This document shows, piece after piece, positions 215 to 24,963 of a stretch of DNA of 28,707 nt. The position numbers were made by a program, and so were the translations under genes. Source of the DNA: a virus (taxonomy: Duplodnaviria > Heunggongvirae > Uroviricota > Caudoviricetes). The stretch lies in IMG/VR virus record IMGVR_UViG_2778261009_000004; one strand, given 5' to 3'. Every line of letters begins with the position of its first letter. Position 1 is the stretch's first letter. The notes below the pieces were generated by a model, which had not been told where the DNA came from, searched no databases, and saw only the letters and a list, made by a program, of their open reading frames with translations.

Positions 215-3616
<3,402 letters not shown>

Positions 3617-3673
3617 TCACGCTCCATAAACGACAAAACCGCCCGCAGGCGGTTTCACATAAAACATTTTGCA

Positions 3674-4962: not shown

Positions 4963-4967
4963 GGGAT

Positions 4968-5666
4968 TTACTGCGAAAGTTTGTTAATGGAAAGGAAGCC
5001 GCCAAAGTTGCCGACGTTATTGCGAAACTTACAGCCGCTCAGGCATTTGCTGCATTTATCCTTCGTGATATCGGACGTCGGCTGGTCATATTCATCCGCG
5101 ACCGCCGGACCGCTATAACCGCACTCATCGCCGCGATAGGTCCAGGTGCAGGTGTTGGCCAGCATGATACACCCCGGAAAAACAGAGCCATCCGTTTCAG
5201 TCGGTGTGGACAGTACAAAAGAGACACTGACCGCGCTCAGTTCGCTGCACTGCTCGATGCGCCAGCGGCTGATCACCTCCTGCTCCGGATCGGCTTCGCT
5301 GTTTCCGTTGACGAAGTTCACCGCATCCAGAAAACGGGCGTAAACCTTACGCCTGACCACCGTTCCGCCGACCAGACTCTGCAGGTCTTCCGCCATCCCG
5401 GTGACCATGCCGTGCAGGTTAGAGACCGTCAGTGTCGGACGGGCAGCACTGCCCTTACCGTTCAGTTCAAATCCCGTCCCCTGAATGGGATACGGCTGAT
5501 ACTGCCACCCCTGCCAGGTGACCGGCTCACCTTTTTCGTTCTGCTCATTACAGAAAAAATAACGTTCACCACCGACCTCTGTCAGATCGATTTCCCAGAG
5601 CACCACCTGGGCTGACTGAGTGAGGCGTGTCGTCTCATGATGTGTTTCCTGTGGAATATCCTGCAT
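4968..5666 (-). CDS. L: Tail tip assembly protein L
   Basis: 232-aa ORF, same length as lambda L; MQDI...VVLWEIDLTEVGGERYFFCNE...CxxC motifs. Confidence 0.9.
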   Translation of the reverse strand: MQDIPQETHHETTRLTQSAQVVLWEIDLTEVGGERYFFCNEQNEKGEPVTWQGWQYQPYPIQGTGFELNGKGSAARPTLTVSNLHGMVTGMAEDLQSLVGGTVVRRKVYARFLDAVNFVNGNSEADPEQEVISRWRIEQCSELSAVSVSFVLSTPTETDGSVFPGCIMLANTCTWTYRGDECGYSGPAVADEYDQPTSDITKDKCSKCLSGCKFRNNVGNFGGFLSINKLSQ

Positions 5667-5675
5667 CAGAGCCTC

Positions 5676-6005
5676 CTATGCCACGACCTGTTCAAAATCT
5701 GCCGTTATGGTTACCCACAGCGCCCCTACGCTTGCCGACCATTTACGACAAACCACCCTGATCGGCTTCCAGTCATAAGGTGGCGTCCACTGAAATGCGC
5801 GGACGCCACCGTGCCGTTCCAGAAAGGCTTTTAAAGATGGGTGTTCACATTTACGAACACGTATCGTCACGCTGTAAGTCGACAACTGGTTATTCAGTCC
5901 CGCCGCACGACGCTGTTCATAACCATCGCCCAGCTTCACTGTCACCACTTTCGGCTCTGATACCACATTCATATCCGGGCGCACTTTCCAGTGAAACGTC
6001 TCCAT
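5676..6005 (-). CDS. M: Tail tip protein M
   Basis: 109-aa ORF, same length as lambda M; FxWKV N-terminus and FEQVV C-terminus. Start overlaps the H stop by 1 nt. Confidence 0.9.
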   Translation of the reverse strand: METFHWKVRPDMNVVSEPKVVTVKLGDGYEQRRAAGLNNQLSTYSVTIRVRKCEHPSLKAFLERHGGVRAFQWTPPYDWKPIRVVCRKWSASVGALWVTITADFEQVVA

Positions 6006-9000
6006 TACCGATATGCTCCACTTAACCGACCACCATCACGGGCCTGCTGTTGCATAAAGTCCGCTGCCGCTTTTTTCCCAAGGTCATAAACCACCTTCAG
6101 GGCAGCCGGACCTATCTGCCCGTTCGTGCCATCGTTATTGATCTCGATGTTGTACTGCGGGGCAAACATCGCCATACCTGAACCACCAATATCCGCCACA
6201 ACCCCCAGCTTACCGTCAGCACCACGACGCAGAGGCAGAATGGCTTCAGGTCCCGCTTCACCCATCACACCCGCGCCTTTTGCAAAAGCAAAAAACGTCG
6301 GACGGTTAACCACCGTGCCACTGTAACGACTCAAATCAGCAGACTGATAAATCCCCCCATTGGCATTCAGGGAAAGGCTGCTGAGATCAAATCCCAGTAC
6401 ACTGCCAATCCCTTTTATCGATTTCATCATGGTTGCCTGCGCCAGGATTTTCGCCATATCTGACAGCACAGAAGAGGTGAAGGATTTGAAATTGAGTTTG
6501 CCGGTAGTGACAAAAGTTGCCAGGCCATTTCCCATGTTGCTGAAGGCTGACGAGAACACCTGTTCTGCTGTTCCTGCCGTATTATCTGCATCCACGGTAA
6601 AATCCTGAAATGCACGCAGGACTCCGTTTTTCCAGTTACCCTGCACAACTTCAAGCTGTTGCCAGTAACGGCGATTCTCATTCAGTTGTCGGTTCAGGCT
6701 CTCCGTCAGCGCCTGCTCGGCCTTTCTGTAGTCATCCGTGTTATATGTCCCTTTCTGCTCACTATCCCGCCTCAACTGCTCCAGCTGTTGCTGGTATTTC
6801 TGGCGAAGACTCAGTTGTACCTGATATCGCTGCCGCTGCTGATCACCCATACCCACCGTGGCGATATCCAGGTCATGTTGCTGACGCTGAGCGCGCTCTT
6901 CTTCAGCCAGTTGACTGGTCAGCTGAATTGTTTTTTTCTTCAGATCGTTGAGTGCCGTCTGTTTCTGAAGCTCCTGCTGTTTTACATCCAGCAGCGTCAG
7001 TGCCTGAATCAGTTCATCTTTACGGGCCAGCACACTCTTTTCATCTGCCGTCAGTTTTTTCCCGTCCAGATCGCTGATGCGCTGCTGCAGAGCCAGAAGC
7101 TGTTTATGCGCTTCTGTCATCTTTTCAGTGGCAATGCCTGCTGACTGTCTTGCAGCAGCAATCTGTCCTTCCACCTGTGCCTGTTGCTGACTGTACTGCA
7201 GCAATAACCGGGTGGCCTCATCATTACGGGTTTCGCGTGTTTTTTTCTTACCGGATGCCAGGGCTTTCTCGTAACGTTCATTTTCACGTTGTATCGCTGC
7301 ATCCCTGACAGCCTGATCGGCGTACTGCATGGAATTAATACGCGCAATTTCACGCTGATGTCGTGCTGCTTCCGTTTCATTCATCCGGTTCAGTGCAGCA
7401 TTTTCAGCATTACGTCGTTTCTGTTGCTCCTGATAATTCCGCTCTGCCTGCTCTTTTGCATCCTGCAAATCCTTCTTGCGTTTTTTCTCCTGAAGCTCGT
7501 TAAGACGCTGCTGATCGTACTCAACCTGAGAAGATGATGCCGTCCAGGGGAGTCTTTTCGCCCGCGACACTTTCTCCTGTAAAGCGGAAATCTGTTCATC
7601 CAGCGAGTCTTCACGACCAATATTCATGGCCGCATCCCAGAAACGACTCCATAAATCAGACAGATACTTCAGCGTACTGCCCAGCGCATTGAGGTTATTA
7701 TCAATATCCGCAGTACGCCGACCGGTTTCCTCTGCCAGTGCAGACATGGCTATCCGTGCCGCATCACTGGACCGCCCCTGTTCCCCAAGGACGCGTATCT
7801 GCTCAAGCTGAGTGGCAGTAAGAAAATGCAGCTCATTGTCCAGAGCCTTCGCGGCATTTACAGGATCATCCTTCAGCCGCTTAAACTGATTTATGGTATC
7901 GCTGACCGACTGGCCAACCGATCGCTCCATCTGTGCGGCAGCTCTCGCCACCATACCGATATCGTTTCCACGAAATGCACCACTCCCCACCACCTGAGCC
8001 AGCGCACCGGCTGCAGCATGTTGCGTAATACCATTCCCGGAAATAGCACGACTGAGCGTCCACAGCTGCCCGGCAGTGACTCCGGCATAATGCCCCGTCA
8101 GCGACAACTGGCGGTTAAATTCTTCCCCCTCCTTCTGACCATCATACCAGGCTTTACCCAGACCATAGACGGCCGCGGCAATACCGCCAATAACCCCGCC
8201 CAGCATCATGCCTTTCGGTGACATCAGTGTGTCTATCCATCCGGCACGGTTAGCCAGCGTTATCCCGGATCCCCTCAGCGCATCTAAATTGCCGCGAGCC
8301 AGTTCACCTATCAGAACGCCTATCTCCTGGCGGGCCGCTGCACTTTTCAGACCCAGCGAATGCGTGGCTTTTCCTGCCTGCTCCATTTTGCGGATATACA
8401 CTTCTGCAGCACTGCTTACCCCCAGCTGGGCAGGCTTAGCACGAAGCAACTCAGAAGAAGAAAGATTCTGGCGGGTTGCCTGCTCTTTAAGCTGACGGAT
8501 AAACGCCACTTTCTGTCGGGTAGCCTCTGCCTCAGCCTGCGTAAGAACACCGGTTTTCGCCGTAACCTCAGAAATCAGCGCCAGATAATCCTGCTGACCA
8601 ATCCCGCCACTGTTTCTGGCCTGTCGGATCTGCTGCTGAATACGCTGTAATTCCTGCAGTCCCGCACTGGCCTGTTTCACACTGTCAATCTGACGATAAA
8701 ACGCGGCAGCCGCTTTATCCTGAGCCTCCGCCAGAGCCATGGCCTGCGCCTGTTCCTCGCGCATTTTCTGGCTCAGTGCCTCCATACGCTGGCGGGTTTG
8801 CTCCACCTCGCGGGCCATGCGTTCATGAGCCTGTGCGCTCTTCTCCACCGTCTGCGCATGGACGGATGCGGCTGTTGCAGCCGAAGAAGCCGCCTGCATT
8901 GTCTGCCGGGCGGCCTGAGTCTGACGCTCCATAAAACGCTGCATACGGGCAGAAGACCGTTCTGCATCGCTGGCTGCACCATTCAGAAGGTTTTTGATAC

Positions 9001-9070
9001 GGGGAATTTCATTTTTAAACTCTGCCGCATCAATCCCCAAATCAATGACCAGGTTGGCTATCTGGTCCAT
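6005..9070 (-). CDS. H: Tail tape measure protein (H-like)
   Basis: C-terminus INNDGTNGQIGPAALKVVYDLGKK...DGGRLSGAYR matches the lambda H C-terminus as remembered. Long coiled-coil, Q/A/E-rich centre and a Gly-rich hydrophobic segment. The track ORF begins at a TTG (9100); the first ATG (9070, MDQIANLVIDL...) has SD GGAGGTG 7 nt upstream and is the likelier start. About 1021 aa, versus about 853 aa for lambda H. Confidence 0.9.
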   Translation of the reverse strand: MDQIANLVIDLGIDAAEFKNEIPRIKNLLNGAASDAERSSARMQRFMERQTQAARQTMQAASSAATAASVHAQTVEKSAQAHERMAREVEQTRQRMEALSQKMREEQAQAMALAEAQDKAAAAFYRQIDSVKQASAGLQELQRIQQQIRQARNSGGIGQQDYLALISEVTAKTGVLTQAEAEATRQKVAFIRQLKEQATRQNLSSSELLRAKPAQLGVSSAAEVYIRKMEQAGKATHSLGLKSAAARQEIGVLIGELARGNLDALRGSGITLANRAGWIDTLMSPKGMMLGGVIGGIAAAVYGLGKAWYDGQKEGEEFNRQLSLTGHYAGVTAGQLWTLSRAISGNGITQHAAAGALAQVVGSGAFRGNDIGMVARAAAQMERSVGQSVSDTINQFKRLKDDPVNAAKALDNELHFLTATQLEQIRVLGEQGRSSDAARIAMSALAEETGRRTADIDNNLNALGSTLKYLSDLWSRFWDAAMNIGREDSLDEQISALQEKVSRAKRLPWTASSSQVEYDQQRLNELQEKKRKKDLQDAKEQAERNYQEQQKRRNAENAALNRMNETEAARHQREIARINSMQYADQAVRDAAIQRENERYEKALASGKKKTRETRNDEATRLLLQYSQQQAQVEGQIAAARQSAGIATEKMTEAHKQLLALQQRISDLDGKKLTADEKSVLARKDELIQALTLLDVKQQELQKQTALNDLKKKTIQLTSQLAEEERAQRQQHDLDIATVGMGDQQRQRYQVQLSLRQKYQQQLEQLRRDSEQKGTYNTDDYRKAEQALTESLNRQLNENRRYWQQLEVVQGNWKNGVLRAFQDFTVDADNTAGTAEQVFSSAFSNMGNGLATFVTTGKLNFKSFTSSVLSDMAKILAQATMMKSIKGIGSVLGFDLSSLSLNANGGIYQSADLSRYSGTVVNRPTFFAFAKGAGVMGEAGPEAILPLRRGADGKLGVVADIGGSGMAMFAPQYNIEINNDGTNGQIGPAALKVVYDLGKKAAADFMQQQARDGGRLSGAYR

Positions 9071-9769
9071 AACGCACACCTCCGGAAATACCTTCCCCAA
9101 GATGCATCAGTTCTTCGTCCGTTCGCTCCGGTATCCCGTTCTCTTCCGGTAAAAGGCTGAAATCAGCCACCGCAGCATCACTGCTACCGGACACCATTCT
9201 CACGATCAATGCCTTCAGCGAGGCAAACTGCGCATCCATCCACACATCACTGAAGCTCTGCATCCGGAAATAATCGCCCCACTCACCAAGCTCAGTGGCC
9301 GACATTTCCGACAGCATCCGCCGCCAGTCTGCCCGCCGGAACTCCCGGGCAAGCCGCATGACAAACTGCATTTCCCGCGTCAGGACTTTTCCGGCGTCAG
9401 CACCTCATGCTCCAAATCCCCGGCATTCTCAATGACTCCCATACCGCTCAGCGACAGAACCATCTCCGCCCCCGCTCCCAGGGCATCATACGACCATGTT
9501 GTAATAACGGATGCGCAAAGCGTCTCAACATCCTGAGACTGTTCCGCATTCCACAGTGAGCGGGAAACCAGCCAGGCATTGATATCCATCCCCATCCGCA
9601 GAAAAGCAATCTGTCGTTCAGCCTCCGGCAGTTCTCCCTCTTCGGCATCAAACTTTGCCGTTCGCTGCTGAACAAACGCCAGATATTCAATTCTCTGCAG
9701 CCCGGACAGCTCACTGAGCACCACGGACTGCTTTTCATAATTAAACGTGCCCTGTTTCAGAAACATCAT
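9042..9769 (-). CDS. T: Tail assembly chaperone G-T fusion made by programmed -1 ribosomal frameshift (T segment is 9042..about 9404 in the -1 frame)
   Basis: The ORF at 9042..9371 is in the -1 frame relative to G and stays open upstream to 9404, overlapping the last 8 codons of G. The G-frame sequence just before its stop is CTG ACG CCG GAA AAG TCC TGA, with GGAAAAG at the position of the lambda G GGA AAG slip site. Confidence 0.6.
9380..9769 (-). CDS. G: Tail assembly chaperone G
   Basis: Lambda G-like N-terminus MMFLKQG...LSELSGLQRIEYL from ATG 9769 with SD GGTGGAG. The track ORF start at 9808 would encode the terminator hairpin and is probably an artefactual extension. Confidence 0.85.
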   Translation of the reverse strand: MMFLKQGTFNYEKQSVVLSELSGLQRIEYLAFVQQRTAKFDAEEGELPEAERQIAFLRMGMDINAWLVSRSLWNAEQSQDVETLCASVITTWSYDALGAGAEMVLSLSGMGVIENAGDLEHEVLTPEKS

Positions 9770-9782
9770 GTTCTCCACCTGC

Positions 9783-9806
9783 AAAAAAGCCCCGGATAAC
9801 CGGGGC
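9783..9806 (-). terminator. Intrinsic terminator / attenuator directly downstream of major tail gene V
   Basis: Minus strand: perfect 7-bp stem GCCCCGG-TTAT-CCGGGGC followed by TTTTTT, 20 nt after the V stop and just before the G SD. Confidence 0.55.
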
Positions 9807-9826
9807 AAATGATGAGTATCGTCCTG

Positions 9827-10576
9827 TTAACCTGCGGCGCTGACAGCCACCGCAGCCACTGCCACAAAATCGCCGTCAGAAGTCATGCCCACAATGCTGA
9901 CACTGCCCTGCTTCACGCCTTTCACCGTGGCCACAAGCCCGTTCAGGGTCACCGTGGCAGTCTGTGGATCTGTCGAATGCACACTGATCGCTTTGTCACT
10001 GGCTCCGTCAGGTTTTACTGTAAAGGTCAGCGTGGTGGTTGCTCCCACTTTTACACTGGCAGATGCCGGTGCCACCGTCAGCCCGGTAACGCTCACTGTT
10101 TCAGTGCCTTCCTCTGCCAGATACGGACGCCCCACACCGCTGATTTTCACTGTGCGGGTCATCACGTCTTTTGAGGCAATGGTTTTACCCAGTGAGCTCA
10201 GCCAGCCACGGAAAACATCAACAGTGCCGTTGGGATATTTGATACGAAACGCGCAGACTTCACCGGAGTCGAACAACTGAACCAGTTTTTTCTGCCCGCT
10301 GTCACCCGGACGCCAGGCCAGCGTCGCCGAAGTATCACCGACGGATTTCTGCCCCTGGGTTGTCGTTTTCCAGTCTGCATCTTCATCATCGAGATAAGTG
10401 TCATCTTCTGCATCAGCGGTCATTTCGCCAGGTTGCAGATCCTTCACCATCGCAAGACGCAGCCAGTCAGTGTCCGATAAAGGGTTCGCAAACGCATCGC
10501 CCTTGCCGGTGTACATCCAGAACGTCGTTCCCGCACCTTTCGTTTTTGCCAGTGGATTTGGTGTGGTCATTGCCAC
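9827..10576 (-). CDS. V: Major tail protein V with C-terminal Ig-like (Big_2-type) domain
   Basis: 249-aa ORF in the V position (lambda V is about 246 aa); C-terminal ...VTGLTVAPASASVKVGATTTLTFTVKP... Ig-like repeat. Confidence 0.9.
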   Translation of the reverse strand: MAMTTPNPLAKTKGAGTTFWMYTGKGDAFANPLSDTDWLRLAMVKDLQPGEMTADAEDDTYLDDEDADWKTTTQGQKSVGDTSATLAWRPGDSGQKKLVQLFDSGEVCAFRIKYPNGTVDVFRGWLSSLGKTIASKDVMTRTVKISGVGRPYLAEEGTETVSVTGLTVAPASASVKVGATTTLTFTVKPDGASDKAISVHSTDPQTATVTLNGLVATVKGVKQGSVSIVGMTSDGDFVAVAAVAVSAAG

Positions 10577-10581
10577 CTCCT

Positions 10582-10995
10582 TTAATTCGTGTACGTGATC
10601 TGGTACGTGATTTCCGCCATCGCCCAGGTGGCCATCTCATTATCACGTTGATAGTTAAAACCGAGAGGGAGCAGGGTGTCGATGAGTCCGGAAAGTGCCG
10701 GTATATCATTCAGGGCCGGGAAAATGGTGCTCTCCATCCACATATCCAGCTCTGAATCCGGTGCCTGTGCCCGGATGAAGACAGCAATATGCAGAACAGC
10801 CTGCCAGTCATCTTCATCCGTCATTTTTCCGGTGTACTGAGCATCACTCAGCCACACCGCCACGGCAGGCAGTTCCTGCGCATCAATAAATGCCGGAAGC
10901 CCGTCAAAAAACGTGGCGCTGTCTCCACACTGTTCCCGAAGGCGTGCCAGTACGGCCTGGCGGATTTGTGTATGTCGGTTCATCGGGTCAGCCAT
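10582..10995 (-). CDS. U: Tail terminator protein U
   Basis: 137-aa ORF with ATFFDG...PAVAVWL...DSELDMWMES motif similar to lambda U. An alternative ATG at 10983 overlaps the Z stop in an ATGA arrangement. Confidence 0.85.
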   Translation of the reverse strand: MADPMNRHTQIRQAVLARLREQCGDSATFFDGLPAFIDAQELPAVAVWLSDAQYTGKMTDEDDWQAVLHIAVFIRAQAPDSELDMWMESTIFPALNDIPALSGLIDTLLPLGFNYQRDNEMATWAMAEITYQITYTN

Positions 10996-11558
10996 AACCT
11001 CAGTTGTTGTTTCAGTGCATACCCCAGCTGTTTCGGCATTTCCGCAGCAATAATGCGGTCGCGGGCATCTTCAAATGCCTGTGTCAGCGGTCCGGACAGC
11101 GGGACTTTCACCACATCAATGGGGTAACGATTTTTGCCATCAATACGCCGCATCACATGCCAGCGACCATTCGCCAGTTGCTGAATAAACGCATCCCGGA
11201 AAAGATATTTACCCACCTTCAGCACACTGCCACGGTACTGCAGTTTTCCACCACGCCGGGCCAGTCTGACCCGGGCTGTCCCCAGCTTAATAGCGGGCAG
11301 ATTGCCCCGGTTAACGCGGATCCTGGCCGTCATTTTTCCTGACGGACTGGCTTTAAACACCCGGACACGCTGACGTACCAGTTTCAGGGGGATCCCTTTC
11401 ACCTGGTTATCTCCCGCAACGGTATTCCCGGCAACCTGCCGGGTGGCGACCGAGACCGCTTTCTGTGCCACACGGTTTATCGCCCATGCGCTGGCCTGTG
11501 GCACCATACGGGTATCAAGGCTGTTCAGATTACGGATGGCATTCTCAAGCCCCTTCAT
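10980..11558 (-). CDS. Z: Tail completion protein Z
   Basis: 192-aa ORF, same length as lambda Z; position between FII-like and U. Confidence 0.85.
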   Translation of the reverse strand: MKGLENAIRNLNSLDTRMVPQASAWAINRVAQKAVSVATRQVAGNTVAGDNQVKGIPLKLVRQRVRVFKASPSGKMTARIRVNRGNLPAIKLGTARVRLARRGGKLQYRGSVLKVGKYLFRDAFIQQLANGRWHVMRRIDGKNRYPIDVVKVPLSGPLTQAFEDARDRIIAAEMPKQLGYALKQQLRLWLTR

Positions 11559-11569
11559 CCCACACCTCT

Positions 11570-11845
11570 TTACTCAATAAAGATCATTGGCTTACCGTTA
11601 AAACGTTCATGCCGTGTAACCGTCCATTGTTGTCCGTCATAAACAACGCGATCCCCGCGCCGTGGGCGGTATCCCGAAGAAAACACCACCAGAGAGACCG
11701 CAGGTCCGGACAGAGCATTCAGCTCTGCCAGTGTTTCTCCCGGGATCACAGTCATATCGACATCATTAATCGAGGCTGTCTTTCCCATCTTTCTAACCGT
11801 GATAGCATCCATACGCGCTGCCAGCCGGGAAAAGGGATCAGACAT
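11570..11845 (-). CDS. Head-tail joining protein (FII-like)
   Basis: 91-aa ORF; N-terminal MSDPFSRLAARMDAI and ...RRGDRVVYDGQQWTV resemble lambda FII motifs (MADFDNLFDAAIARA ... RRGDTLTIGEENFWV, from memory). Position immediately upstream of Z. Confidence 0.6.
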   Translation of the reverse strand: MSDPFSRLAARMDAITVRKMGKTASINDVDMTVIPGETLAELNALSGPAVSLVVFSSGYRPRRGDRVVYDGQQWTVTRHERFNGKPMIFIE

Positions 11846-12161
11846 TGAGTTTTACCGGCACTTCTTCTGCACTGGTTCCGGCATCTGCCCAGACAACCCC
11901 GACCAGCGGATCAGAGCCGCTGTTAGTCAGCTGAACTTTTCCGGACTTCAGATAAACCTTCTTACCCGTTTTCATGTCATCCGTTTTCAGCTTAGGCAGC
12001 ATAAACACACCTTCGGTCATGCCGTCGCCTGTTTCACCCTGTGGAATATCGGTCAGCGCCACCGCAAAAACATCGCCCACCTGCACCAGATCTCCGCTGC
12101 TGATGGCTGCACTGGCAACAATCGCCACCGTTTTTCCTTCTTCTACAAAATTCTTTGCCAT
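11838..12161 (-). CDS. DUF2190-like small capsid-associated protein (possible decoration/cement protein)
   Basis: ATG at 12161 (MAKNFVEEGKTV...) with SD GGAGA; small beta-rich protein immediately downstream of the major capsid gene. The track ORF is extended to 12206. Confidence 0.5.
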   Translation of the reverse strand: MAKNFVEEGKTVAIVASAAISSGDLVQVGDVFAVALTDIPQGETGDGMTEGVFMLPKLKTDDMKTGKKVYLKSGKVQLTNSGSDPLVGVVWADAGTSAEEVPVKLNV

Positions 12162-12204
12162 AACTGTCTCCGCACAGCCCCGTTCAGGGGCTGATTTCAG
12201 GTAC

Positions 12205-12225
12205 AAAAAAAGCCCTTACGGGCCA
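12205..12225 (-). terminator. Putative intrinsic terminator / attenuator downstream of the major capsid gene
   Basis: Minus strand GCCC-GTAA-GGGC (GNRA loop) followed by TTTTTTT, between the capsid stop (12248) and the next start (12161). Confidence 0.4.
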
Positions 12226-12247
12226 TCAGAGTTGTTGTCTGCGACGT

Positions 12248-14206
12248 TTACGCCGTACATTTCACCAGACCGCGGTGATCAACTGGCGCGACACCGGCGT
12301 CAATACGCACTTTCGTTGTCACGCCATCCACACTGAAGCCCTCCATCTGATCAATATATGGCGTATCCACACCGTTGAGATAAGCCACTTCAATCGTATC
12401 GGAGCCTTTTGACGCAGCCAGGTAGAAGGTGGTCTGGCTGTTATCATCAAGACGAGGCTCTGCAATAACGGTCGCAAAATCTTTCACCGGGTTAATAATA
12501 CCGGCGTTAATGTCAGCCCCCTTGACACTTGAGGAGCGAATGACCTGGTTAGCAACAGACTCCATCGCCGTCGGTACCAGTACGAACGCAGGACGAATAT
12601 TCAGATGACGCTCCCCCTCTTTCTGAACGCGCATCAACTGGCGGGCTTTATCCAGCGATGCCACGTCCATTGCCGCGCTCTCCAGTACGTTTGCATGTTT
12701 CGCTTTATCGAACAGACTTACATTATCTGTGGAGATTTTCGGGTTAGACGTCAGAATGGCATAAACCAGATCGGCAATAGTGGATTTCGCCGCACGGCCC
12801 AGTTTCATCGGGACATCGGTCAGCATATTCAGATCATCATTGATAATGGCCTGACGGGTGATACTGAACAGCTCGCCATAGGTCGCCAGTGCAATAGTGG
12901 CCTGTTTATCTCCGGTGGTGACGTATTTATATTCCGCCCCTTCACGCACCTGACGTAGAGCACTGAAGCCCCCCATACCCACACGATGGGCAATTTTAAA
13001 ATCAGACAACTGACCTTTCCGCGTCCACTGTTCATAGGTTTCAGGGGCATCTTCCCAGCCCTGCAGAATGGCTTTGTTCGCAACATCCAGCAGAATATTA
13101 CCGAAGTCAGACGTACTGTGTGTGAACGCCGCACCGACCATCTGCATCGGGTTATAACCGGAAACCCCAATACCCCGTTCAGTTAGTGACATACGGGCAT
13201 ATTCACGCAGGGTCATCCCGTTGTAGACATTATCACGTTCGGTTTTTTCAAATCCGGCACGCGCCATCAGCGCCTGGCGAATCCCGTCCCCCACAAAATT
13301 ACCGTTACCGGCATAAATATGAGCCGGGGTATTTTTATTGGATGGCGTGGACTCGCGCCCCATCTCGTTCAACAGCTTTTCACGGGCCTGCTCCAGCGAA
13401 CATTCAGGATCGGCAAGACACTGGGCCTGCAGCGTCTGATAACGCCCGCCAAACATGGCAAACAGATCATTAATACCGTTTACACGCGCTTTTTGCTCTG
13501 CCAGTACCTGCGCACGGATACTGTTTTCATCCACCACGGGTGCTGCTGCCTGCACTGGCGTCCGGGAGGCTGCAGGTTCATCATCCTGTACGCGTGGAGC
13601 ACTGTTGCGTGGCGGAGTAATCATGTTTCGAATGGATTCCGGCATCTTTTTAAATTCCTCTGTACGTTTTGACTGAATACATGCCATTGCCTTAACGGCT
13701 GGTGTCACCTGATCAGCAAATCCCTGTGCCAGACATTCGGCACCGGACATCCAGGTCTCATCCGCCAGCATGGCAGCAATTTCATCGGTGGTTTTCCCGG
13801 TTTTCTGTGCATAAGCGGGTAACAGAACCGCCTCAACTTTATCGAGCAGGTCGGCATAGGTGCGCATGTCCTCCGCATCACCGCCCGTAAAGCCAAATGG
13901 TTTATGAATCATCATGAAGGAGTTTTCCGGCATAATGACCGGGTTTCCCACCATCGCAATGACCGACGCCATTGACGCCGCCACACCGTCGACATAAACG
14001 GTAATGGACGCACCATGTGTTTTCAGTGCATTAAAAATGGCGATGCCTTCAAAGACATCGCCACCCGGTGAATTAATATGGAGATTAATGTGGGTGATAT
14101 CGCCCAGTGCATTCAGATCACTGATAAACTGCTTCGCTGTAACACCCCAGAAACCAATCTCGTCATAAATATAAATATCCGCGTCACTCTGGTGACCTGC
14201 CTGCAT
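12248..14206 (-). CDS. Prohead serine protease (ClpP/S49-like) fused in frame to a scaffold-like linker and an HK97-fold major capsid protein
   Basis: One uninterrupted ORF. N-terminal part DIYIYDEIGFWGV...INSPGGDVFEG...MMIHKP is ClpP-like; middle is a charged helical linker; C-terminal about 330 aa has HK97-type capsid motifs (...GYNPMQ...ITRQAIINDDLNML...). First ATG after the portal stop is 14206; the track ORF start 14467 overlaps portal. Confidence 0.8.
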   Translation of the reverse strand: MQAGHQSDADIYIYDEIGFWGVTAKQFISDLNALGDITHINLHINSPGGDVFEGIAIFNALKTHGASITVYVDGVAASMASVIAMVGNPVIMPENSFMMIHKPFGFTGGDAEDMRTYADLLDKVEAVLLPAYAQKTGKTTDEIAAMLADETWMSGAECLAQGFADQVTPAVKAMACIQSKRTEEFKKMPESIRNMITPPRNSAPRVQDDEPAASRTPVQAAAPVVDENSIRAQVLAEQKARVNGINDLFAMFGGRYQTLQAQCLADPECSLEQAREKLLNEMGRESTPSNKNTPAHIYAGNGNFVGDGIRQALMARAGFEKTERDNVYNGMTLREYARMSLTERGIGVSGYNPMQMVGAAFTHSTSDFGNILLDVANKAILQGWEDAPETYEQWTRKGQLSDFKIAHRVGMGGFSALRQVREGAEYKYVTTGDKQATIALATYGELFSITRQAIINDDLNMLTDVPMKLGRAAKSTIADLVYAILTSNPKISTDNVSLFDKAKHANVLESAAMDVASLDKARQLMRVQKEGERHLNIRPAFVLVPTAMESVANQVIRSSSVKGADINAGIINPVKDFATVIAEPRLDDNSQTTFYLAASKGSDTIEVAYLNGVDTPYIDQMEGFSVDGVTTKVRIDAGVAPVDHRGLVKCTA

Positions 14207-14219
14207 CCTGAACCAGGAA

Positions 14220-15728
14220 TTATTCTTCGGACTGGTCGTCGGTGTGCTGCGGCTCCTGTCGTTTCGTTGCGGCACTGCTGCCTCCTTTATCACTGGCCGG
14301 ATCGGTATCAAATACCAGATCCAGCTTGCGGTTTTCATCAATTTCGGCCTTGCGCCGACGTTTGACATCATCCGGATTACGACCACCTGCACGTACCCAG
14401 TCTGATTCTGTCGCCGCTCCACCACGAATCTGAATTTTCCAGGCCTCAGCCTCCTTAACAGGGTCAATCCACGGCATCACCGGTCCGGAATACACCGCGG
14501 TATACAGTGAAGAACGATCAAGATCGCGGGGTAGCCTGATAACACCGGATGCCACAGCCTGTTTCAGCCAGGCACGATACATCGGGCGGGTGACGGCACC
14601 AATAAACCAGTCCTGCAGGATCAGGTAGCCATCAGTGGATTCAACCAGCTCCTGACGCTGGGCGCTGTAAGTGCCGTTATAGTTGCGTGCCGTACTGGAA
14701 AAACTCAGACGACTGCCCGCCGCCACGGCACGCAACTGACCATTACGAAAAGTTTCAAGGTTAGGATTGGGACGATCCGACTTCACCATTCCGATTTCTT
14801 CGCCGGGTTTCAGATCGTCGTAAATAATGCCTGGCTGAATGGTAAGCTCGCGTTCATTCTCCTTGCTGCCATTACCATCCGGTTCATAGCTCTGCCCGTC
14901 GCCTTTCCGGATGTACATCCCCAGAGCAGCGGCGATCCTTGCTGCAGTCAGCTCAGAATCTTCATACTCTTTCAGGGCACTGAGGCGGATCAGCACACCG
15001 GACAACAAAGACGTCCCGCGCATCTGGTGCAGACGGCGAACAAATTTAAGATGCAGCATTCGCTCTGCATCCACTTCTTTGGTTTCCATCTGCCGCCCGG
15101 ATACGGGACGGCTTTTATACACCAGATATTTTTCGGGACGCCCCCAGTCATCAACAAACACGCCCTGATTCAGCCTGTTGCTCTCATCACTGGTCATGGG
15201 AATAAAGTCCGGCTCGAGCGCCTCCAGCCAGAAATGAACACCGGCAGAAGGCGTCAGGCTGTTTATGCGCCCGGAAACCATCTGGGCAAACACCTCACCA
15301 TCGCGCAGCCAGGTACGCAGCATCAGACGTTCCAGCATCGGACGGGTAAACTGCCCGGTGACTTCCGGACTGACAGACCATTCACTCCATCGGGTGCGTA
15401 TCTCCGCTGCCAGATCACGGGCAATGGCCCCATTGCGTAATACCGGATGTGGCTCGACAATAATCCCGTTTTTCCCCACCACCCGTTCTTCCAGCTTGTC
15501 AAATACACCAATAACCAGATCGTGGTTGTTATCAAGGTAACGGGCCTGCTCACGTAACGACACGGCCCCGTACTGGCTTAACTGGTCGGCAGTTCGGTTT
15601 TCCCGCCGGGCTTTGTGTGTCCGTGTCGTTTTTACGGCCTCATAAGCCTGGATCACCGCACGGGAACGCAGCCTTGCCGCTTTCCATCCTGGTGAAAAAA
15701 CGCCAATCACATCATCAAGAATTGCCAT
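14220..15728 (-). CDS. Portal protein (lambda B-like family)
   Basis: About 500 aa, located between the W-like gene and the protease-capsid gene; acidic C-terminus. ATG 15728 overlaps the W stop (TGATG); the track start 15800 is a longer extension. Confidence 0.85.
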   Translation of the reverse strand: MAILDDVIGVFSPGWKAARLRSRAVIQAYEAVKTTRTHKARRENRTADQLSQYGAVSLREQARYLDNNHDLVIGVFDKLEERVVGKNGIIVEPHPVLRNGAIARDLAAEIRTRWSEWSVSPEVTGQFTRPMLERLMLRTWLRDGEVFAQMVSGRINSLTPSAGVHFWLEALEPDFIPMTSDESNRLNQGVFVDDWGRPEKYLVYKSRPVSGRQMETKEVDAERMLHLKFVRRLHQMRGTSLLSGVLIRLSALKEYEDSELTAARIAAALGMYIRKGDGQSYEPDGNGSKENERELTIQPGIIYDDLKPGEEIGMVKSDRPNPNLETFRNGQLRAVAAGSRLSFSSTARNYNGTYSAQRQELVESTDGYLILQDWFIGAVTRPMYRAWLKQAVASGVIRLPRDLDRSSLYTAVYSGPVMPWIDPVKEAEAWKIQIRGGAATESDWVRAGGRNPDDVKRRRKAEIDENRKLDLVFDTDPASDKGGSSAATKRQEPQHTDDQSEE

Positions 15729-15940
15729 CAGAACCTCGCCAGCCGGTACCCGGGATGCCCCCGTCGTCGTGTAATCAGAGCCGCAAGGCGGCGCTCCCAC
15801 TCCTGCCGTCCCTGCCGGATCTCAGATAAGTTTTCCATGGTCATCTGCTGACCATTAAAGGTGACGGATTTTCCGTCCAGCACCGCCATTTCAGCTTCCG
15901 TATAACGCTGAATCATGGCTTCGATATCATTCTGGTTCAT
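15728..15940 (-). CDS. Head-to-tail joining protein W-like
   Basis: About 70 aa; C-terminal ...LITRRRGHPGYRLARF resembles the lambda W C-terminus (...RRRGPAGFYV, from memory). ATG at 15940 overlaps the terminase stop (ATGA). Order terminase-W-portal as in lambda. Confidence 0.7.
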   Translation of the reverse strand: MNQNDIEAMIQRYTEAEMAVLDGKSVTFNGQQMTMENLSEIRQGRQEWERRLAALITRRRGHPGYRLARF

Positions 15941-18039
15941 AACCATCCTCCGGAAGTCAGCCAGGGGTTAACATCGTCAGTTACTGTTTTCTTCCGTTTT
16001 TGTTTTTTAACAGGCGTGGATACCGGTTCCGGTGTGGGTGACGGTTCGGTACTGTCCGGGACACACTCCAGCCAGGTTTCCCGGCTCGCCCACTCCGGTG
16101 CATCCGGCCAGCGGATCTTTTCGTATCCATGCAGAATGACCAGAGCCTCGGCATACACCATCAGGTCAAAAGCTTCGTTGGCACCGCGACCCGGCTTACT
16201 CCATTTCCCGTCACTGCTCCGCTCTTCATACGTCAGTTCGTCGTAAAACCAGCTCCCCAGCCAGTCAGGGAAATGCACATAGCCGGGACCTGGCGAGTCA
16301 CGCCATAACGCGTTATTCACCCGGTCTTTCAGGGCATCCGTCTGAAGAAGCCAGAGCGGCACATGACCTGCGGCCTGCGCCCGGCGGCCCGTTCGTCCGG
16401 TGTTATCAGGGAATGTACGGCTGATCAGTTTTGCGCGCCGGATGCTGTCACCCTTAAACAGGTAAATACGTTTACCAAGGCCATCACGACGGCAACGACG
16501 CCAGAATTTATAGGCATTATCAGTGACCCCGTCTTCACCGCCGGAGTCCACCGCCATTGCCATCAGTCGCATTTGTTGAGAAGGATCGGAGGCCAGCGGC
16601 CAGCTTTTATGAAAAACATCCGTCAGCAGGACATCCCAGTCTTCCGGATAGCTGGCCGGATCAATTCGCTGGCTCTCCCCGTCGCTGTCACCGCGCAATG
16701 ACTGCGTGATGTTGTAACGATCAATAATCCAGCGTTCGCCACGGCTGCCATAGCCCGTTACCTGAACCACAAAACGGCGATGACGTCCCGCCTGCACATC
16801 CACTGTCGCCACAAGGAAATTAACGCCATCCGGCACACTGCGGGAAGGAACTGGCTCTGCCCGCTGCTCAAGCAATTCACTTTTTCGTTGCTCCATGCTG
16901 GCGCGGGGAAGATAAGGTAATCCCCAGTCGGTATTGATAACCGTCTTGAGTGTCTCTTCACTTCCGGTTGTCTCGTATTCCTGTTCTGCAGTAAGCAGTT
17001 TGTAAACGAGTTGCGAGAGTGTCTGATAAGCAGCTGCCGGACCCTCCATCCAGAATGACGCAATACGTGAACGCCGGGGATCACCATAACGACTGCCATC
17101 TGCATTGATGGATTCACCATCCCGTAACCAGACCCCACGTCCGTTCAGCTCGCGTTTTTGTTCAGGCAAAATCCGTCCTGAACAGGAAGGACACTGAATA
17201 TAAGCCGCCTCACTTGCCAGCACAGGATCGGCAATATCACGGAAACCAGCAACCACATCGCCGCAGGGCTGAAAATACTCACCACAGTGTGGACAGGGCC
17301 AGTACCAGCGACGGCGATCGCCACGGTTATAGAGCGACAGGATCCCCGTGGTTGGTGGAGCCTCATGCGGTGAAGTCCGTCGCCATTTCACATCCTTCAC
17401 ATCCCTGCCGGGGGAACTCTCCACCAGCGTCATACCACTGGACATAAATGTGGTGGTACGTTTTGAGGCAAGAGAGAAGGCATCCCCCTCACCATCAATA
17501 TCTTCCGGAAAACGGTCATAATCCGTCAGCGCCACGCATTTATAATCTGATGAAGACATGATATTGACTGACGGCCAGCCGATTTTCAGGTAGTTGCCAG
17601 CAAGGACTGTTCTGTCATAAACGTTGTTGTCATTTTTGTTCGGACTCAGGCGACTGACCACTTCCGGGCTGACGCGAAACGTTCTGGCGAGTCGTTTTTT
17701 GGAGTGTTCGCGGGCTTTTTCCTCCGTCATCTGAATGATCAGCATATCAGCAGGATCGCAAATCACGTTGTAAATCACCCAGCCGTCAATCAGGCCGATA
17801 GTCTTGCCGGTTCGTGCCGGGCCAACAAATATCACTGCGTCGTATTCACGCGAGGCCAGGCAGTTCATAGGCTCAATAACATACGGTGCCACCAGCGGAT
17901 CCCACGGGACTGAGTTCCCTGCCCCCATAGGCACCCGCATATACTGAGCAACGGCATCAGCAACCCGCATTCGTCTCGGTGCGCGAAGGATATAACCTGA
18001 ATCGGTTCGTGCTGCCTTTGCGGTTTCCTGATTCAGCAT
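15937..18039 (-). CDS. Terminase large subunit (GpA-like)
   Basis: 700 aa; Walker A VIFVGPARTGKT; Cys cluster CPHCGEYFQPCGD...CPSCSG; start overlaps the small-subunit stop (TAATG). Confidence 0.9.
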   Translation of the reverse strand: MLNQETAKAARTDSGYILRAPRRMRVADAVAQYMRVPMGAGNSVPWDPLVAPYVIEPMNCLASREYDAVIFVGPARTGKTIGLIDGWVIYNVICDPADMLIIQMTEEKAREHSKKRLARTFRVSPEVVSRLSPNKNDNNVYDRTVLAGNYLKIGWPSVNIMSSSDYKCVALTDYDRFPEDIDGEGDAFSLASKRTTTFMSSGMTLVESSPGRDVKDVKWRRTSPHEAPPTTGILSLYNRGDRRRWYWPCPHCGEYFQPCGDVVAGFRDIADPVLASEAAYIQCPSCSGRILPEQKRELNGRGVWLRDGESINADGSRYGDPRRSRIASFWMEGPAAAYQTLSQLVYKLLTAEQEYETTGSEETLKTVINTDWGLPYLPRASMEQRKSELLEQRAEPVPSRSVPDGVNFLVATVDVQAGRHRRFVVQVTGYGSRGERWIIDRYNITQSLRGDSDGESQRIDPASYPEDWDVLLTDVFHKSWPLASDPSQQMRLMAMAVDSGGEDGVTDNAYKFWRRCRRDGLGKRIYLFKGDSIRRAKLISRTFPDNTGRTGRRAQAAGHVPLWLLQTDALKDRVNNALWRDSPGPGYVHFPDWLGSWFYDELTYEERSSDGKWSKPGRGANEAFDLMVYAEALVILHGYEKIRWPDAPEWASRETWLECVPDSTEPSPTPEPVSTPVKKQKRKKTVTDDVNPWLTSGGWL

Positions 18040-18533
18040 TACTCCTCCTGCTGTAATTCCTCCTCATCATCCGCACCTGCTTCAGTCACCCGCAGGGCTA
18101 TCTGATCGCGCAGATCATCAATAATGGACTGAACACGGCTCACAGCGGCAGGCTGCAGACCGCAGTCACGTTCAAGAATATCCGGTAATGTCTCCAGCAC
18201 CTGCACGACCGCTTTTGCCCAGATGGCAAACTCCCGTCTGACATCACTGGCCGGAATGAGTTGTGCCGTTTCCTGTTCGAACTTAAGACGCTCACGTTCA
18301 GACTGATACCAGGCTTTGCGCTCATGCGCGTCCATTTCGCCTTCTGCAACCGGCGGTGGTAATGCCAGAAATGCCGACACAATATCAACCACCCGATAAA
18401 GCTTGAGGTTGCTTTCATGCCCCCCTGCAACGGGTAGATTTTGCAGCCTTGCCGCAGCAGTCTGGCGATGTACACCTGACAATGCCGCCAGTTGACTGAT
18501 ATTCAGCGTCAGATTTTTTAACTCTCGATCCAT
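18039..18533 (-). CDS. Terminase small subunit (Nu1-like, N-terminal HTH)
   Basis: 164 aa; N-terminal LNISQLAALSGVHRQTAAARL helix-turn-helix and acidic C-terminus; immediately downstream of the cos-like site. Confidence 0.8.
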   Translation of the reverse strand: MDRELKNLTLNISQLAALSGVHRQTAAARLQNLPVAGGHESNLKLYRVVDIVSAFLALPPPVAEGEMDAHERKAWYQSERERLKFEQETAQLIPASDVRREFAIWAKAVVQVLETLPDILERDCGLQPAAVSRVQSIIDDLRDQIALRVTEAGADDEEELQQEE

Positions 18534-18702
18534 ACCCGCTCCAGAATGTTTTAAACATGCATCTTGCGAACAACTTTAGGCAAACGGTGTTAGTGATGAA
18601 CAAAAAACAATCAGAATCGACACCATAAAAATAAAACCACTGTAATATCAATCAATTACAGTAGTGGTGATGACGAATAAAATTTCAAAAACTAGCCTTT
18701 TT

Positions 18703-18722
18703 CCGCGACGCTCCCGCCCCGT
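18703..18722. other. Putative cos site (cosN core with predicted 12-nt cohesive end GGGCGGGAGCGT, minus-strand orientation, 18708..18719)
   Basis: Minus strand reads ACG GGGCGGGAGCGT CGCGG. Lambda reads ACG GGGCGGCGACCT CGCGGG (from memory): flanks identical, core differs in 5 positions. Located about 170 nt upstream of the Nu1-like gene, with AT-rich (cosB-like) DNA in between. Confidence 0.5.
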
Positions 18723-21011: not shown

Positions 21012-22039
<1,028 letters not shown>

Positions 22040-22350
22040 AGATATTTATGATGAGGACGCTCGTGCTTATTGGCAGGATTTTCAATCTTAAAGGAGTACT
22101 GATGCTGCAGATAAGACTCAACTTTTCTGACAATTTTTCTGCTACTTCCAGGAAGACTTGCCGGACGCTCATTCTGGCTGCTGCCTCATAAAACTCCAGC
22201 GTAGCTCCTTCAACACGGTCCATGGCGACATCCAGGCCAAAAATTTCACCGTCAAAGCGTTCTTTGTCCTGTAAGGCTACAGTTACCGTAACTTTATTCT
22301 CAAAATTACGGACTCCTTTCACAACCAGTTCATAGTCTTGAGTCATTGGA

Positions 22351-22566
22351 TTATTCTCCTCTCGCAGCCTTACGCCTGTCTTCTTTAATCTTGAAATAAA
22401 GATTTGTCAGATACGTCAGCAGGCCAAAAACCAGGCTACCCAGCACACCGATTGCAGCCCACTGTGACGGAGTTACTTTATCGAGTAACTGCAATGCCCA
22501 GAAACCAGCATTACCCGCCGATGTGCCATAGGCAACACCTGTTGTTAACTTATCCATTGATTTCAT
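22351..22566 (-). CDS. Class II holin / pinholin (S21-like) with dual-start motif
   Basis: [28 protein letters not shown]...[35 protein letters not shown]: two transmembrane segments, MKSMDK dual start (antiholin/holin), SD GGTGAGGA. The track ORF extends to 22641. Confidence 0.85.
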
Positions 22567-22956: not shown

Positions 22957-23019
22957 TTGATTTTATTAGTAACAAGTATTTTTTATATTTTAATAATATA
23001 TTTAAAGCAGATAATAAAA

Positions 23020-23037
23020 AACCCGCCTGAGCGGGTT
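23020..23037. terminator. Intrinsic terminator hairpin (mainly minus-strand orientation)
   Basis: AACCCGC-CTGA-GCGGGTT with an A/T run on the flanks; on the minus strand the hairpin is followed by TTTTTATTAT. Confidence 0.45.
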
Positions 23038-23319
23038 TGAGATTGTGGTGCTTTTTGTGGGAGTCATCCACTTACGCACTTTGTTTTGCGATGCCAGCAG
23101 TTAGCTTCTGCTGTGAAACTATTCATGCAGCAAACCTGCACTTCACCACAATGGTTAGCATACTTTTCCTGATTAAGATTTTGCCAAATATGCTGGCCAT
23201 TGTTTCATGTATTGGACCTCCTTACTTTTTATTAAAGAGATCCAATATTCAATACTCTGTCCGTATCTCTACTCAGGCATCAGCCTTCTTCGTTATCGTA
23301 TACAGACGAGCGATGAATT

Positions 23320-23535
23320 TTAATCAGTAATGATGACATTTGCTGCTGCAGGACCTTTAGCACCACTCTCTATAGAGAAGGTAACCTTTTGACCTTCAAA
23401 TAAGGTTCGATAATTATCATTCTGAATCGCAGAAAAATGCACAAACACATCTTTACTACCATCAACAGGAGAAATAAAGCCGAAACCTTTATCAGCGTTA
23501 AACCATTTTACTAAACCAGTCATTTTATTTGACAT
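23320..23535 (-). CDS. cspB: Cold-shock protein CspB
   Basis: [71 protein letters not shown], matching E. coli CspB as remembered. Confidence 0.9.
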
Positions 23536-23845
23536 TCTACATTCCTTAACTTGAGCCTTTCGGCATAAATGGTTTGCATAACAGAAACGACTTCGTACTT
23601 AATTGGAGAGACTCAAAGAAGGAATAAGTGAATAACACCTGAAATGAGAACTGCTTTAGTAAACTACTTCGTATATCGTCTGTTCTTCAAACCGACGCAG
23701 TCATTAACTCATAGTTGAACATATGAAGCAATGTTTATTTTAGACATCCAGCCACCTTCAACCCTATCAAAAAAGTAGTTTTCTCCAGGAACGTGTGTAT
23801 GGTGCACCAGGTTATCAGTATTAAGGAGTTTTTCTGTCCCCTAAA

Positions 23846-24050
23846 ATGACAGGAATTGTCAAAAACTTTGACTACAAAAGCAGCAAAGGTCTTATATTCC
23901 CATCCGATGGCGTATCGATGCCCAGCTTCACGTTTCAGCTCTCAATCTTCGAGATGCAGAAGAAATTACCACAGGATTACGCGTGGAATTTTGCCGGATA
24001 AATGGTTCGCGTGGACCTTCAACTGCCAATGTTTATCCCGGGATGAGATT
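23846..24050 (+). pseudogene. cspF: cspF/cspH-like cold-shock gene disrupted by a frameshift
   Basis: Frame 1 from ATG 23846 encodes the N-terminal cold-shock-domain motif [22 protein letters not shown] then junk until a stop at 23999. The rest of the domain ([42 protein letters not shown]) lies in another frame from about 23910. The frames switch at GATGGC|GTATCG, about 23909-23912. Confidence 0.55.
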
Positions 24051-24082
24051 CAATATCTCTATTGCCCCATTTAAAGCACAAA

Positions 24083-24102
24083 AACCCGCTTATAAGCGGG
24101 TT
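24083..24102. terminator. Bidirectional intrinsic terminator (candidate tR' for the late operon leader; also 3' of the cspF-like gene)
   Basis: AACCCGC-TTATAA-GCGGGTT followed by TTTTCTACTTTTTT on plus; on minus it is followed by a T-rich run. About 110 nt downstream of the Q stop. Confidence 0.5.
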
Positions 24103-24150
24103 TTCTACTTTTTTCTAAACGTCGGATACACAAAGCCCATCGTTGAGAAA

Positions 24151-24179
24151 ATCTTATCCATGTTTTTTGAAAAATGCAA
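24151..24179 (-). promoter_or_regulatory. Candidate late promoter (PR'-like) immediately downstream of Q
   Basis: Minus strand: -35 TTGCAT (24179..24174), 17-bp spacer, -10 TAAGAT (24156..24151), followed about 50 nt later by the terminator hairpin. Pattern match only. Confidence 0.3.
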
Positions 24180-24210
24180 ACATCATGTCGCCATCTTCAG
24201 CAAAAATCAT

Positions 24211-24963
24211 TTATCTCGTCACCTTCCTCAATTGCGCTTCCGCGTATGCTTCTTCCTGCCAGCACTTTGTTACCAGTTTACCAATGACGTCCGCATACCC
24301 CTTATACCACTGATAATCGGTCAGGTCTGGTACCAGCTTCTGGACATGACGTCGTGCCAGCGTGGTCGGTAAACGACTAAACCGGTTTCCATTACAACGC
24401 CCACAAATCTTATATACCGGTACGCCATGAAACCGGGTTCTTTTTTCATCCAGAACAATCCCTTTACCCTTACACCCTCTGCACGCTGTGCTGACTTCGC
24501 CCTTACCATGGCAATGCTGACATAGTTCCTTTACCCATTCTTCCTTGATTACAGATTCCCCGCGTCTGTAGTGTTTCACCACTTCGCGCAATACATTATA
24601 AAATCCCGTACCTGAACAATGCTCACAGCGAGCCTTACTTGCCGCAGACCTGGAGTAATCAGCAAAGGCAAAATTCACGAGGTAAGGAATAATCTGTAAC
24701 CGGATTTCTTCACTCAATTTGTTCAATGTCGGGTTATCCAGTGCCATCGCGTAATTTAGCAGGCCTTCAATCGCAAACTGAGGGTCCTGAACACCAACTT
24801 TTGCCAGAAATAAGGCCAACCCAAGTGGTGCTTTCGACTGCACCATCCCCTGCGCTGCCATTACATCCGTAATTGTTAAACAACCGGTGCCTGTCGCTGG
24901 AGCGTCATCGCTCAATTTTGGAGATTTTGGGGAGTAATATTTTGGTAAGGCTTCAAGGTTCAT
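24211..24963 (-). CDS. Late-gene antiterminator Q (Qin quuQ-type, four CxxC pairs)
   Basis: 250 aa; CEHCSGTG...CQHCHGKG...CRGCKGKG...CGRCNG zinc-binding motifs; located immediately upstream of the late region. Confidence 0.8.

Follow-up and report, generated by a model that had tools for sequence, protein, structure and literature searches.

The window analyzed here, a stretch of 28,707 nucleotides assigned to Caudoviricetes, carries on its minus strand the gene quuQ/ydfT (24211-24963), which encodes a 250-amino-acid Q antiterminator of the Q-lambda family whose zinc module is enlarged. The protein matches Pfam PF03589 (E 2.9e-54) as well as a DnaJ_CXXCXGXG region, and it aligns end to end with the Q-lambda of PDB entries 7UBM/7UBN (E 5.8e-36). 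In RefSeq the open reading frame is the Qin prophage gene ydfT (quuQ), and E. coli records call it "antitermination protein". The gene ends with a TAA stop codon (24213-24211, minus strand), and within the 133 nt that lie 3' of this stop on the same strand, promoter hexamers, a pause element and a hairpin can be read directly. The zinc module itself deserves a comment: residues ~113-193 of QuuQ (window 24385-24627, minus strand) hold four CxxCxGxG motifs and include ~40 residues more than the protein in 7UBM, where the DNA-contacting 'arm' of Q-lambda is, by our reading, a single zinc ribbon with two CxxCxGxG motifs. This insertion may go with the different spacer sequence described below. A Q 100% identical to that of the window is also encoded on a contig that had been assigned to a Veillonella parvula metagenome-assembled genome (L005), in all likelihood an E. 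coli contig that was binned wrongly.

The original prediction had placed TTGCAT and TAAGAT, 17 bp apart, after the Q stop, and both the coordinates and the hexamers are right as read directly. The -35 hexamer TTGCAT (24174-24179, minus strand) lies 32 nt past the Q stop and has CATGAT (24182-24187) just 5' of it. It is followed by the 17-nt spacer TTTTCAAAAAACATGGA (24157-24173), the -10 hexamer TAAGAT (24151-24156) and a 6-nt gap, TTTCTC, on the minus strand. Directly after the gap comes AACGATGGG (24136-24144, minus strand), which comprises the AACGAT pause element and a GGG and is the same 9-mer as that at +1 to +9 of lambda pR'. The presence of AACGATGGG exactly 6 nt past the -10 is the most telling feature of the region and the one that the original prediction had overlooked. 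By homology with lambda, transcription is predicted to start at the A at 24144 (minus strand), so numbered +1, and the initial transcribed block from +1 to +27 (24118-24144, minus strand) is conserved and contains a weak 5' stem that is predicted to pair AACG with CGUU. An 18-codon open reading frame beginning at the Q stop (ATGATTTTTGCT...) was also considered and is no gene; its start codon or its frame is lost in close as well as distant relatives.

The hexamers taken on their own carry little information. TTGCAT/TAAGAT agrees with the sigma70 consensus at 7/12 positions (3/6 and 4/6), hexamer pairs of this grade turn up every 71 nt or so in the window and are at chance level by themselves, and the pair is missing from the output of a consensus promoter scan of the window, so that hexamer strength is unusable as evidence. 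These same facts favor a rival explanation, according to which the hairpin does no more than end transcripts of the ydfU-quuQ operon, and of cspF on the opposite strand, and the hexamers match by chance. Such an explanation, however, leaves AACGATGGG at the exact lambda distance from the -10 without a cause. This 9-mer is present in a single copy in the 28.7-kb window, and the composite TTG-N20-TAnnnT-N6-AACGATGG also has a single occurrence when one mismatch is tolerated, where 0.01 would be expected.

Downstream of the hexamers, the strong hairpin and T run that had been claimed are indeed present as read directly. The hairpin AAAACCCGCT-TATA-AGCGGGTTTT occupies 24104-24081 on the minus strand, with a G+C core at 24100-24085, and TTTTTGTGCTTT follows on its 3' side, with the U-run at 24084-24080. 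Together they form the intrinsic terminator tR' (24076-24104, minus strand), for which the RNA 3' end is predicted near 24076. The span first assigned to the pair, 24083-24179, holds the elements but starts too late at 24083, cutting off the last stem bases and the whole U-run. On the 5' side of the hairpin, the A-rich tract AGAAAAAAGTAGAAAA (24101-24116, minus strand) reads on the plus strand as the T-run of a reverse terminator. A terminator scan scored the hairpin on the plus strand only, with the tail CTACTTTTTT, and this terminator-like character of the other strand is a further point in favor of a plain operon terminator. As we read the minus-strand miss, the tail that the scan requires is consumed by pairing of the U-run with the A-run on the 5' side of the hairpin.

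The predicted 69-nt RNA (24144-24076) folds at -19.3 kcal/mol (z = -2.3). A leader of about 60 nt had been anticipated; a short terminated leader is what we predict as well, with a length of ~67-69 nt rather than 60. In a consensus fold built from 21 leaders, the terminator helix has 9 pairs, with compensatory changes in 6/9, and pairing holds in 94% of cells, as against 31-54% when the helix is slid; 0/500 shuffles match the covariation score. Rfam matches at the site were confined to leader and small-RNA families of a generic sort (rnk_pseudo at 28 bits, Trp_leader at 20 bits and RsmY at 19 bits) and were rejected, all being far under their gathering scores.

The 5' end of the leader can be considered separately. 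Its stem is energetically weak, with one-sided changes only in the helix, and the fold energies of leader 5' stem-loops are no better than those of shuffles (mean z = -0.28). Across Q-lambda-family leaders, the first bases, transcribed from the pause element, show a tendency to be complementary to a segment 13-36 nt downstream (e.g. AACG/CGUU in the window and lambda, UCGUG/CACGA, and UGAUUAU/AUAAUUA). The set used for this 5' complementarity included window 24118-24144 (minus strand), L003, L104-L108 and L111-L190; in 29 diverse leaders, the longest stem averaged 5.45, as against 4.82 +/- 0.18 with shuffled tails, and 0/2000 shuffles reached 5.45. Since only the complementarity test was positive, we treat the 5' stem-loop as a side observation and not as a finding.

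The structural conservation of the region was assessed at 97 loci with relatives of the window Q, taken from genomes and viral contigs, by comparing the DNA past each stop codon. The cassette is found in register 3' of Q homologs of 63-100% identity in eight genera (those named are Escherichia, Kosakonia, Mangrovibacter, Buttiauxella, Phytobacter, Atlantibacter and Scandinavium), and the gap-free layout is absent from one locus in this identity range, that of Mangrovibacter plantisponsor (L013). Among Qs of 63-100% identity, the -35 of the QuuQ-type loci is TTGCAw, TTGTCA or TTGCTA, in register with lambda TTGACT; the 17-nt spacer keeps TTCAAAAw...TGG; the -10 is TAAGAT, TAGGAT, TAAAAT, TAGTAT or TAGCAT, followed by 6 nt; and the pause 9-mer is AACGATGGG, with one locus having AATGATAGG. 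Past the 9-mer, positions +10 to +27 are conserved and are followed by a variable stretch and then a G+C hairpin, with the terminator T-run beginning at +48 to about +68. The DNA 3' of the terminator is unrelated from locus to locus. At positions +15 to +22, both the window and E. coli K-12 depart from the consensus that the phage-borne copies share, and pause strength may therefore differ. When the -35 to +27 block of the window was compared with seven non-Escherichia loci, identity was 77-82% in five and 63-65% in the other two, and in the same loci the Q gene DNA was 65-70% identical and the flanks 39-66%. A plain operon terminator would leave this conservation of -35, spacer, -10 and +1 to +27 across genera, above that of the Q coding DNA, unexplained.

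The comparison also extends to more distant relatives. Qs of 33-42% identity (L018-L020, HK225, SF6, P22, lambda and a Proteus phage) keep the pause element, the register and the early terminator, and each subgroup has its own conserved spacer. A spacer that is conserved within Q subfamilies and different between them resembles a Q-specific binding site, and we propose, from this pattern of sequence, that the spacer at 24157-24173 is a candidate Q-binding element. The motif before the -35, as CAyGAT at a distance of 1-2 bases, is kept at most Q-type loci compared and in lambda and P22, and is absent at L018, L019, L020 and HK225. The cassette layout follows every Q-lambda-family gene examined except that of Erwinia Eho49, a regularity that is again hard to account for if the hairpin serves only to end the ydfU-quuQ operon.

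Within lambda, the Q-binding element sits between the -35 and the -10, and the sequence reads TTGACT-17 nt-TAAATT-TGACTC-AACGATGGG, with a hairpin and T-run visible downstream. In the published definition of a Q cassette, the Q gene is followed by pR', then by a sigma-dependent pause element and a terminator, and finally by the late genes; the lambda Q-binding element belongs to the same cassette, next to the pause element (PMC9388147). The AACGAT of lambda is a -10-like element that is re-bound by sigma70, giving rise to the promoter-proximal pause at +16/+17, and the GGG at +7-9 is a discriminator (PMC5001585). The window resembles lambda in its Q family, in the location just 3' of Q, in the 17-nt spacer, the 6-nt gap and the identical AACGATGGG, in CATGAT before the -35 and in an intrinsic terminator ahead of the late genes. 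It differs from lambda in several respects. The leader is ~69 nt long in the window, whereas the lambda pR'-tR' leader is 194 nt; the spacer is TTTTCAAAAAACATGGA where lambda has TATTGAATAAAATTGGG, as expected for different Q specificity; the window Q has an insertion of ~40 amino acids and four CxxCxGxG motifs where lambda Q has two; the promoter hexamers are weaker; and cold-shock genes that are reversed or self-promoted lie between tR' and the holin gene.

Other known systems are related to the window to differing degrees. The promoters of P22 gene 23 and of the HK225 type have AACGATGG(G/A) in register and a predicted leader of ~60-70 nt, and the HK225 GenBank record annotates a terminator; the spacers and terminator stems are different, however, and the Qs are only 33-39% identical to the window protein. 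The Q cassettes of phage 21 and phage 82 share the logic of promoter, sigma-dependent pause, Q loading and terminator, but their Qs are of unrelated families (PF06530 and PF06323) and their pause sites are placed differently (e.g. +25 in phage 82). By the features compared, the element in the window belongs to the Q-lambda type of late cassette.

E. coli K-12 carries the same cassette, with TAAAAT as its -10 and GATG as its hairpin loop, which allows published transcript ends to be brought to bear. With the K-12 locus (L002) placed on U00096.3 via ynfS (1642122-1642211; PMC6001520), the predicted start maps to 1642422 on the minus strand. The Term-seq data of Adams et al. 2021 (supplementary file 1; PMC7815308) contain an "orphan" 3' end at 1642356(-), with mean reads of 103,591 (LB, OD 0.4) and of 55,368 on a second sheet, and this end is present in all three growth conditions. 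Its sequence context is ...AAAACCCGCTGATGAGCGGGTTTTGTG[C], the 3' end being base 51 of the printed context, as verified on the sgrS row. The end sits 8 nt past the orthologous stem, as expected for intrinsic termination, and it predicts an RNA of 67 nt in K-12 and of 69 nt in the window, both lengths being counted from the start inferred by homology. Term-seq had been suggested as a check on the original prediction, and the published K-12 data do place a 3' end at the orthologous hairpin.

As for the 5' side of the K-12 leader, the Cappable-seq supplement gave no match for the leader 5' end, the K-12 start-site table of Kim 2012 is made up of gene-assigned starts only, and the locus goes unmentioned in the sigma70-pause NET-seq paper. 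Kim 2012 does report a start site upstream of ydfU in K-12, and the 3'-end signal could therefore be, partly or wholly, read-through from ydfU-quuQ. Both this start site and the fact that Term-seq is blind to the origin of an RNA speak for a hairpin that simply ends the ydfU-quuQ operon. The two roles are nevertheless compatible, since in lambda, too, tR' also stops unmodified polymerase arriving from upstream. Overall, we consider it highly improbable that a plain terminator accompanied by a chance promoter match is all that the region contains.

The reading of the region as a PR'/tR'-like pair is instead supported by the Q family, by a promoter and pause element that match lambda, by conservation across genera with diverging flanks, by covariation in the stem and by the K-12 Term-seq end. 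Thus, we think it very likely that the region is homologous to lambda pR'-tR' and serves a Qin-type lambdoid prophage as its late-gene regulatory cassette.

The relationship of the hairpin to cspF is less straightforward. The original prediction had the hairpin acting in both directions, as late terminator and as terminator of a cspF-like gene. In favor of such sharing, a terminator can indeed be read on the plus strand and the hairpin is flanked by an A-run and a T-run, but a functional convergent gene ending there is lacking. The cspF of the window (23834-24036, plus strand), convergent with the late promoter, is annotated as a frameshifted pseudogene with its C-terminus missing; it has a 1-nt deletion after ~23910, and its last codons and stop are lost at ~24036. 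The Term-seq listing also has no plus-strand 3' end at the K-12 hairpin. Compared with K-12, a deletion of ~255 bp has taken the last codons and stop of cspF together with the 29-codon ynfS. In K-12, the hairpin is ~255 bp away from cspF and lies ~150 nt beyond ynfS, so that the two adjoin in the window because the deletion joined them. No fewer than 213 E. coli records share the window arrangement at an identity of 99% or above, and ~1,440 have the K-12-like arrangement. The A-rich tract is found only in the cspF-carrying lineage (the window, K-12 and L008) and is absent from the other QuuQ-type loci, and for this reason a bidirectional role is plausible in the intact arrangement. A second orphan 3' end of K-12, at 1642188(-) (L002 ~3366), lies 168 nt past tR' and antisense to ynfS, in the 255-bp stretch that is missing from the window; it hints at some tR' read-through or at another start site.

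Beyond tR', the first intact gene that any read-through late transcript would cross is cspB (23304-23696, minus strand), which has its own cspA-type 5' UTR (Rfam RF01766, 158.8 bits with a gathering score of 78) and a CSD domain. It is followed by a second intrinsic terminator, between cspB and ynfU (23019-23038, minus strand), which is strong in the terminator scan and at whose K-12 ortholog a plus-strand Term-seq 3' end was found. The gene ynfU lies on the opposite strand, between the cspB terminator and the holin gene. We also observed in the K-12 Term-seq data a minus-strand end 113 nt 3' of cspB with 604,404 and 1,233,565 reads. It corresponds to about 23207 in the window (region ~23207-23245, minus strand), just past a 12-pair hairpin, UUGGAUCUCUUU...AAGGAGGUCCAA, that has no U-run, and it may be a processed or exonuclease-protected end of the cspB 3' UTR.

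The late genes, annotated from the window itself, come next. The lysis cassette (21012-22566, minus strand) consists of holin (22351-22566), ydfR, lysozyme (21506-22039) and Rz (21012-21509), with Pfam matches to Phage_holin_2_1, DUF1327 and Phage_lysozyme. A cspI-like gene lies after Rz and before the DUF1441 gene, and the structural late genes (215-18533, minus strand) include DUF1441, large terminase, portal, protease/capsid, tail tube, tape measure and J. The lysis genes and the genes from terminase to J constitute a complete late operon, downstream of the promoter and on the same strand. It had been proposed that late transcripts must read through the cold-shock genes in order to reach these genes; the gene order agrees with this, and we infer the read-through itself. 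Such a crossing also fits phage PhiR42_1, in which the Q is 99.2% identical and is separated from the holin gene by cspF and cspB, matching the window. As for E. coli FDAARGOS_144 (L110), it is collinear with the window only within about 19.6-27 kb; outside the Q region, identity is 94-98% only, and an IS4-family insertion precedes its terminase genes where the window (~17940-18716) is without IS4.

The completeness of the late operon bears on the question of whether the cassette is still in use. Conceivably, it is a genuine pR'-tR' by descent that no longer drives the late genes and is only a constitutive source of small RNA, the late genes being silent or run from other promoters (e.g. in the AT-rich stretch ahead of the holin gene). 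Qin is cryptic in K-12, cspF has decayed, positions +15 to +22 are off the phage consensus, and promoter-like sites with 9/12 matches do exist upstream of the holin gene (22719-22692, minus strand). These sites, however, occur at chance frequency (7 found vs 7.6 expected), and the pause element is absent from the promoter-like sites near the holin gene. A loss of late control is also difficult to reconcile with an intact Q, with the many viral-contig Qs that are 100% identical to it, with a cassette in which every element is intact ahead of the full set of same-strand late genes, and with the existence of PhiR42_1, whose Q and cspF/cspB order are so close to those of the window. We therefore regard a cassette that no longer drives the late genes as very unlikely.

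If the region is, as we favor, a late-gene cassette of the Q-lambda type, its operation can be pictured by homology. RNA polymerase with sigma70 would start at about 24144 on the minus strand, and sigma70 would re-bind AACGAT in the first transcribed bases, so that polymerase would pause, probably at +13 to +17, as the lambda-identical sequence suggests. In the absence of Q, transcription would terminate at the hairpin and U-run to give an RNA of ~69 nt (67 nt in K-12, where the 3' end is documented). QuuQ, once made, would bind the spacer, load onto the paused polymerase and confer terminator resistance. The modified polymerase would be expected to pass tR', the antisense cspF remnant, cspB with its terminator and the antisense ynfU, and then to enter the lysis and structural genes, in the order in which these lie on the DNA.

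The terminated leader may have a life of its own. StxS is a constitutive RNA from the late promoter of a Stx phage that is stopped at tR' in lysogeny and was detected by Term-seq; its 258-nt primary transcript is cut by RNase E to 74 nt, binds Hfq and targets rpoS and stx1B, and its authors propose that such RNAs are widespread (PMC7547250). By analogy, we take the terminated leader to be the counterpart of the lambda 6S RNA and of StxS, a likeness drawn by description; unlike StxS, the window RNA is predicted to be ~67-69 nt as made. An abundant RNA of ~67-69 nt is probably made in many E. coli. Some features would fit a function as small RNA, namely an A-rich (ARN-like) tract before the terminator, a U-tail (possible Hfq binding) and a conserved 5' stem-loop. 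That the Qin leader is a constitutive small RNA of ~67-69 nt, present in about one third of E. coli including K-12 and acting in trans on host mRNAs as StxS does, is a speculative idea that we consider unlikely.

In the literature searched, we came across no account of the Qin late promoter, no printed sequence of its promoter, leader or terminator, and no published report of QuuQ binding to the spacer or of QuuQ-dependent read-through, and the RefSeq records examined have no regulatory feature at the locus. The cassette is therefore a new, unannotated example of a well-known kind. To the mechanism of the Q-lambda paradigm it adds nothing. What it does provide is a precise annotation for an unannotated element (a start at about 24144, a pause element, a candidate Q-binding spacer and a terminator) and an account of an abundant "orphan" 3' end in the K-12 Term-seq data.

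The cassette is widely distributed, and its range includes a Shiga-toxin phage. A 501-bp region is matched in 1,839/5,426 complete E. coli genomes. In mEp460 and PhiR42_1, the same cassette precedes late-region genes leading to the lysis module. The window Q type, at 94-95% identity, is present in Stx2k and Stx2c phages, and in phiSTEC1575-Stx2k (L102, 4250-7560) stx2A is preceded, at a distance of ~2.3 kb, by a near-identical set of promoter, pause element and terminator, the interval between cassette and toxin gene being occupied in part by tRNA genes. Since the same type of Q and of cassette is found upstream of stx2 in this Stx2k phage, and the same Q type in Stx2c phages, the conserved spacer and pause block are likely to be control points for toxin expression in those Stx phages.
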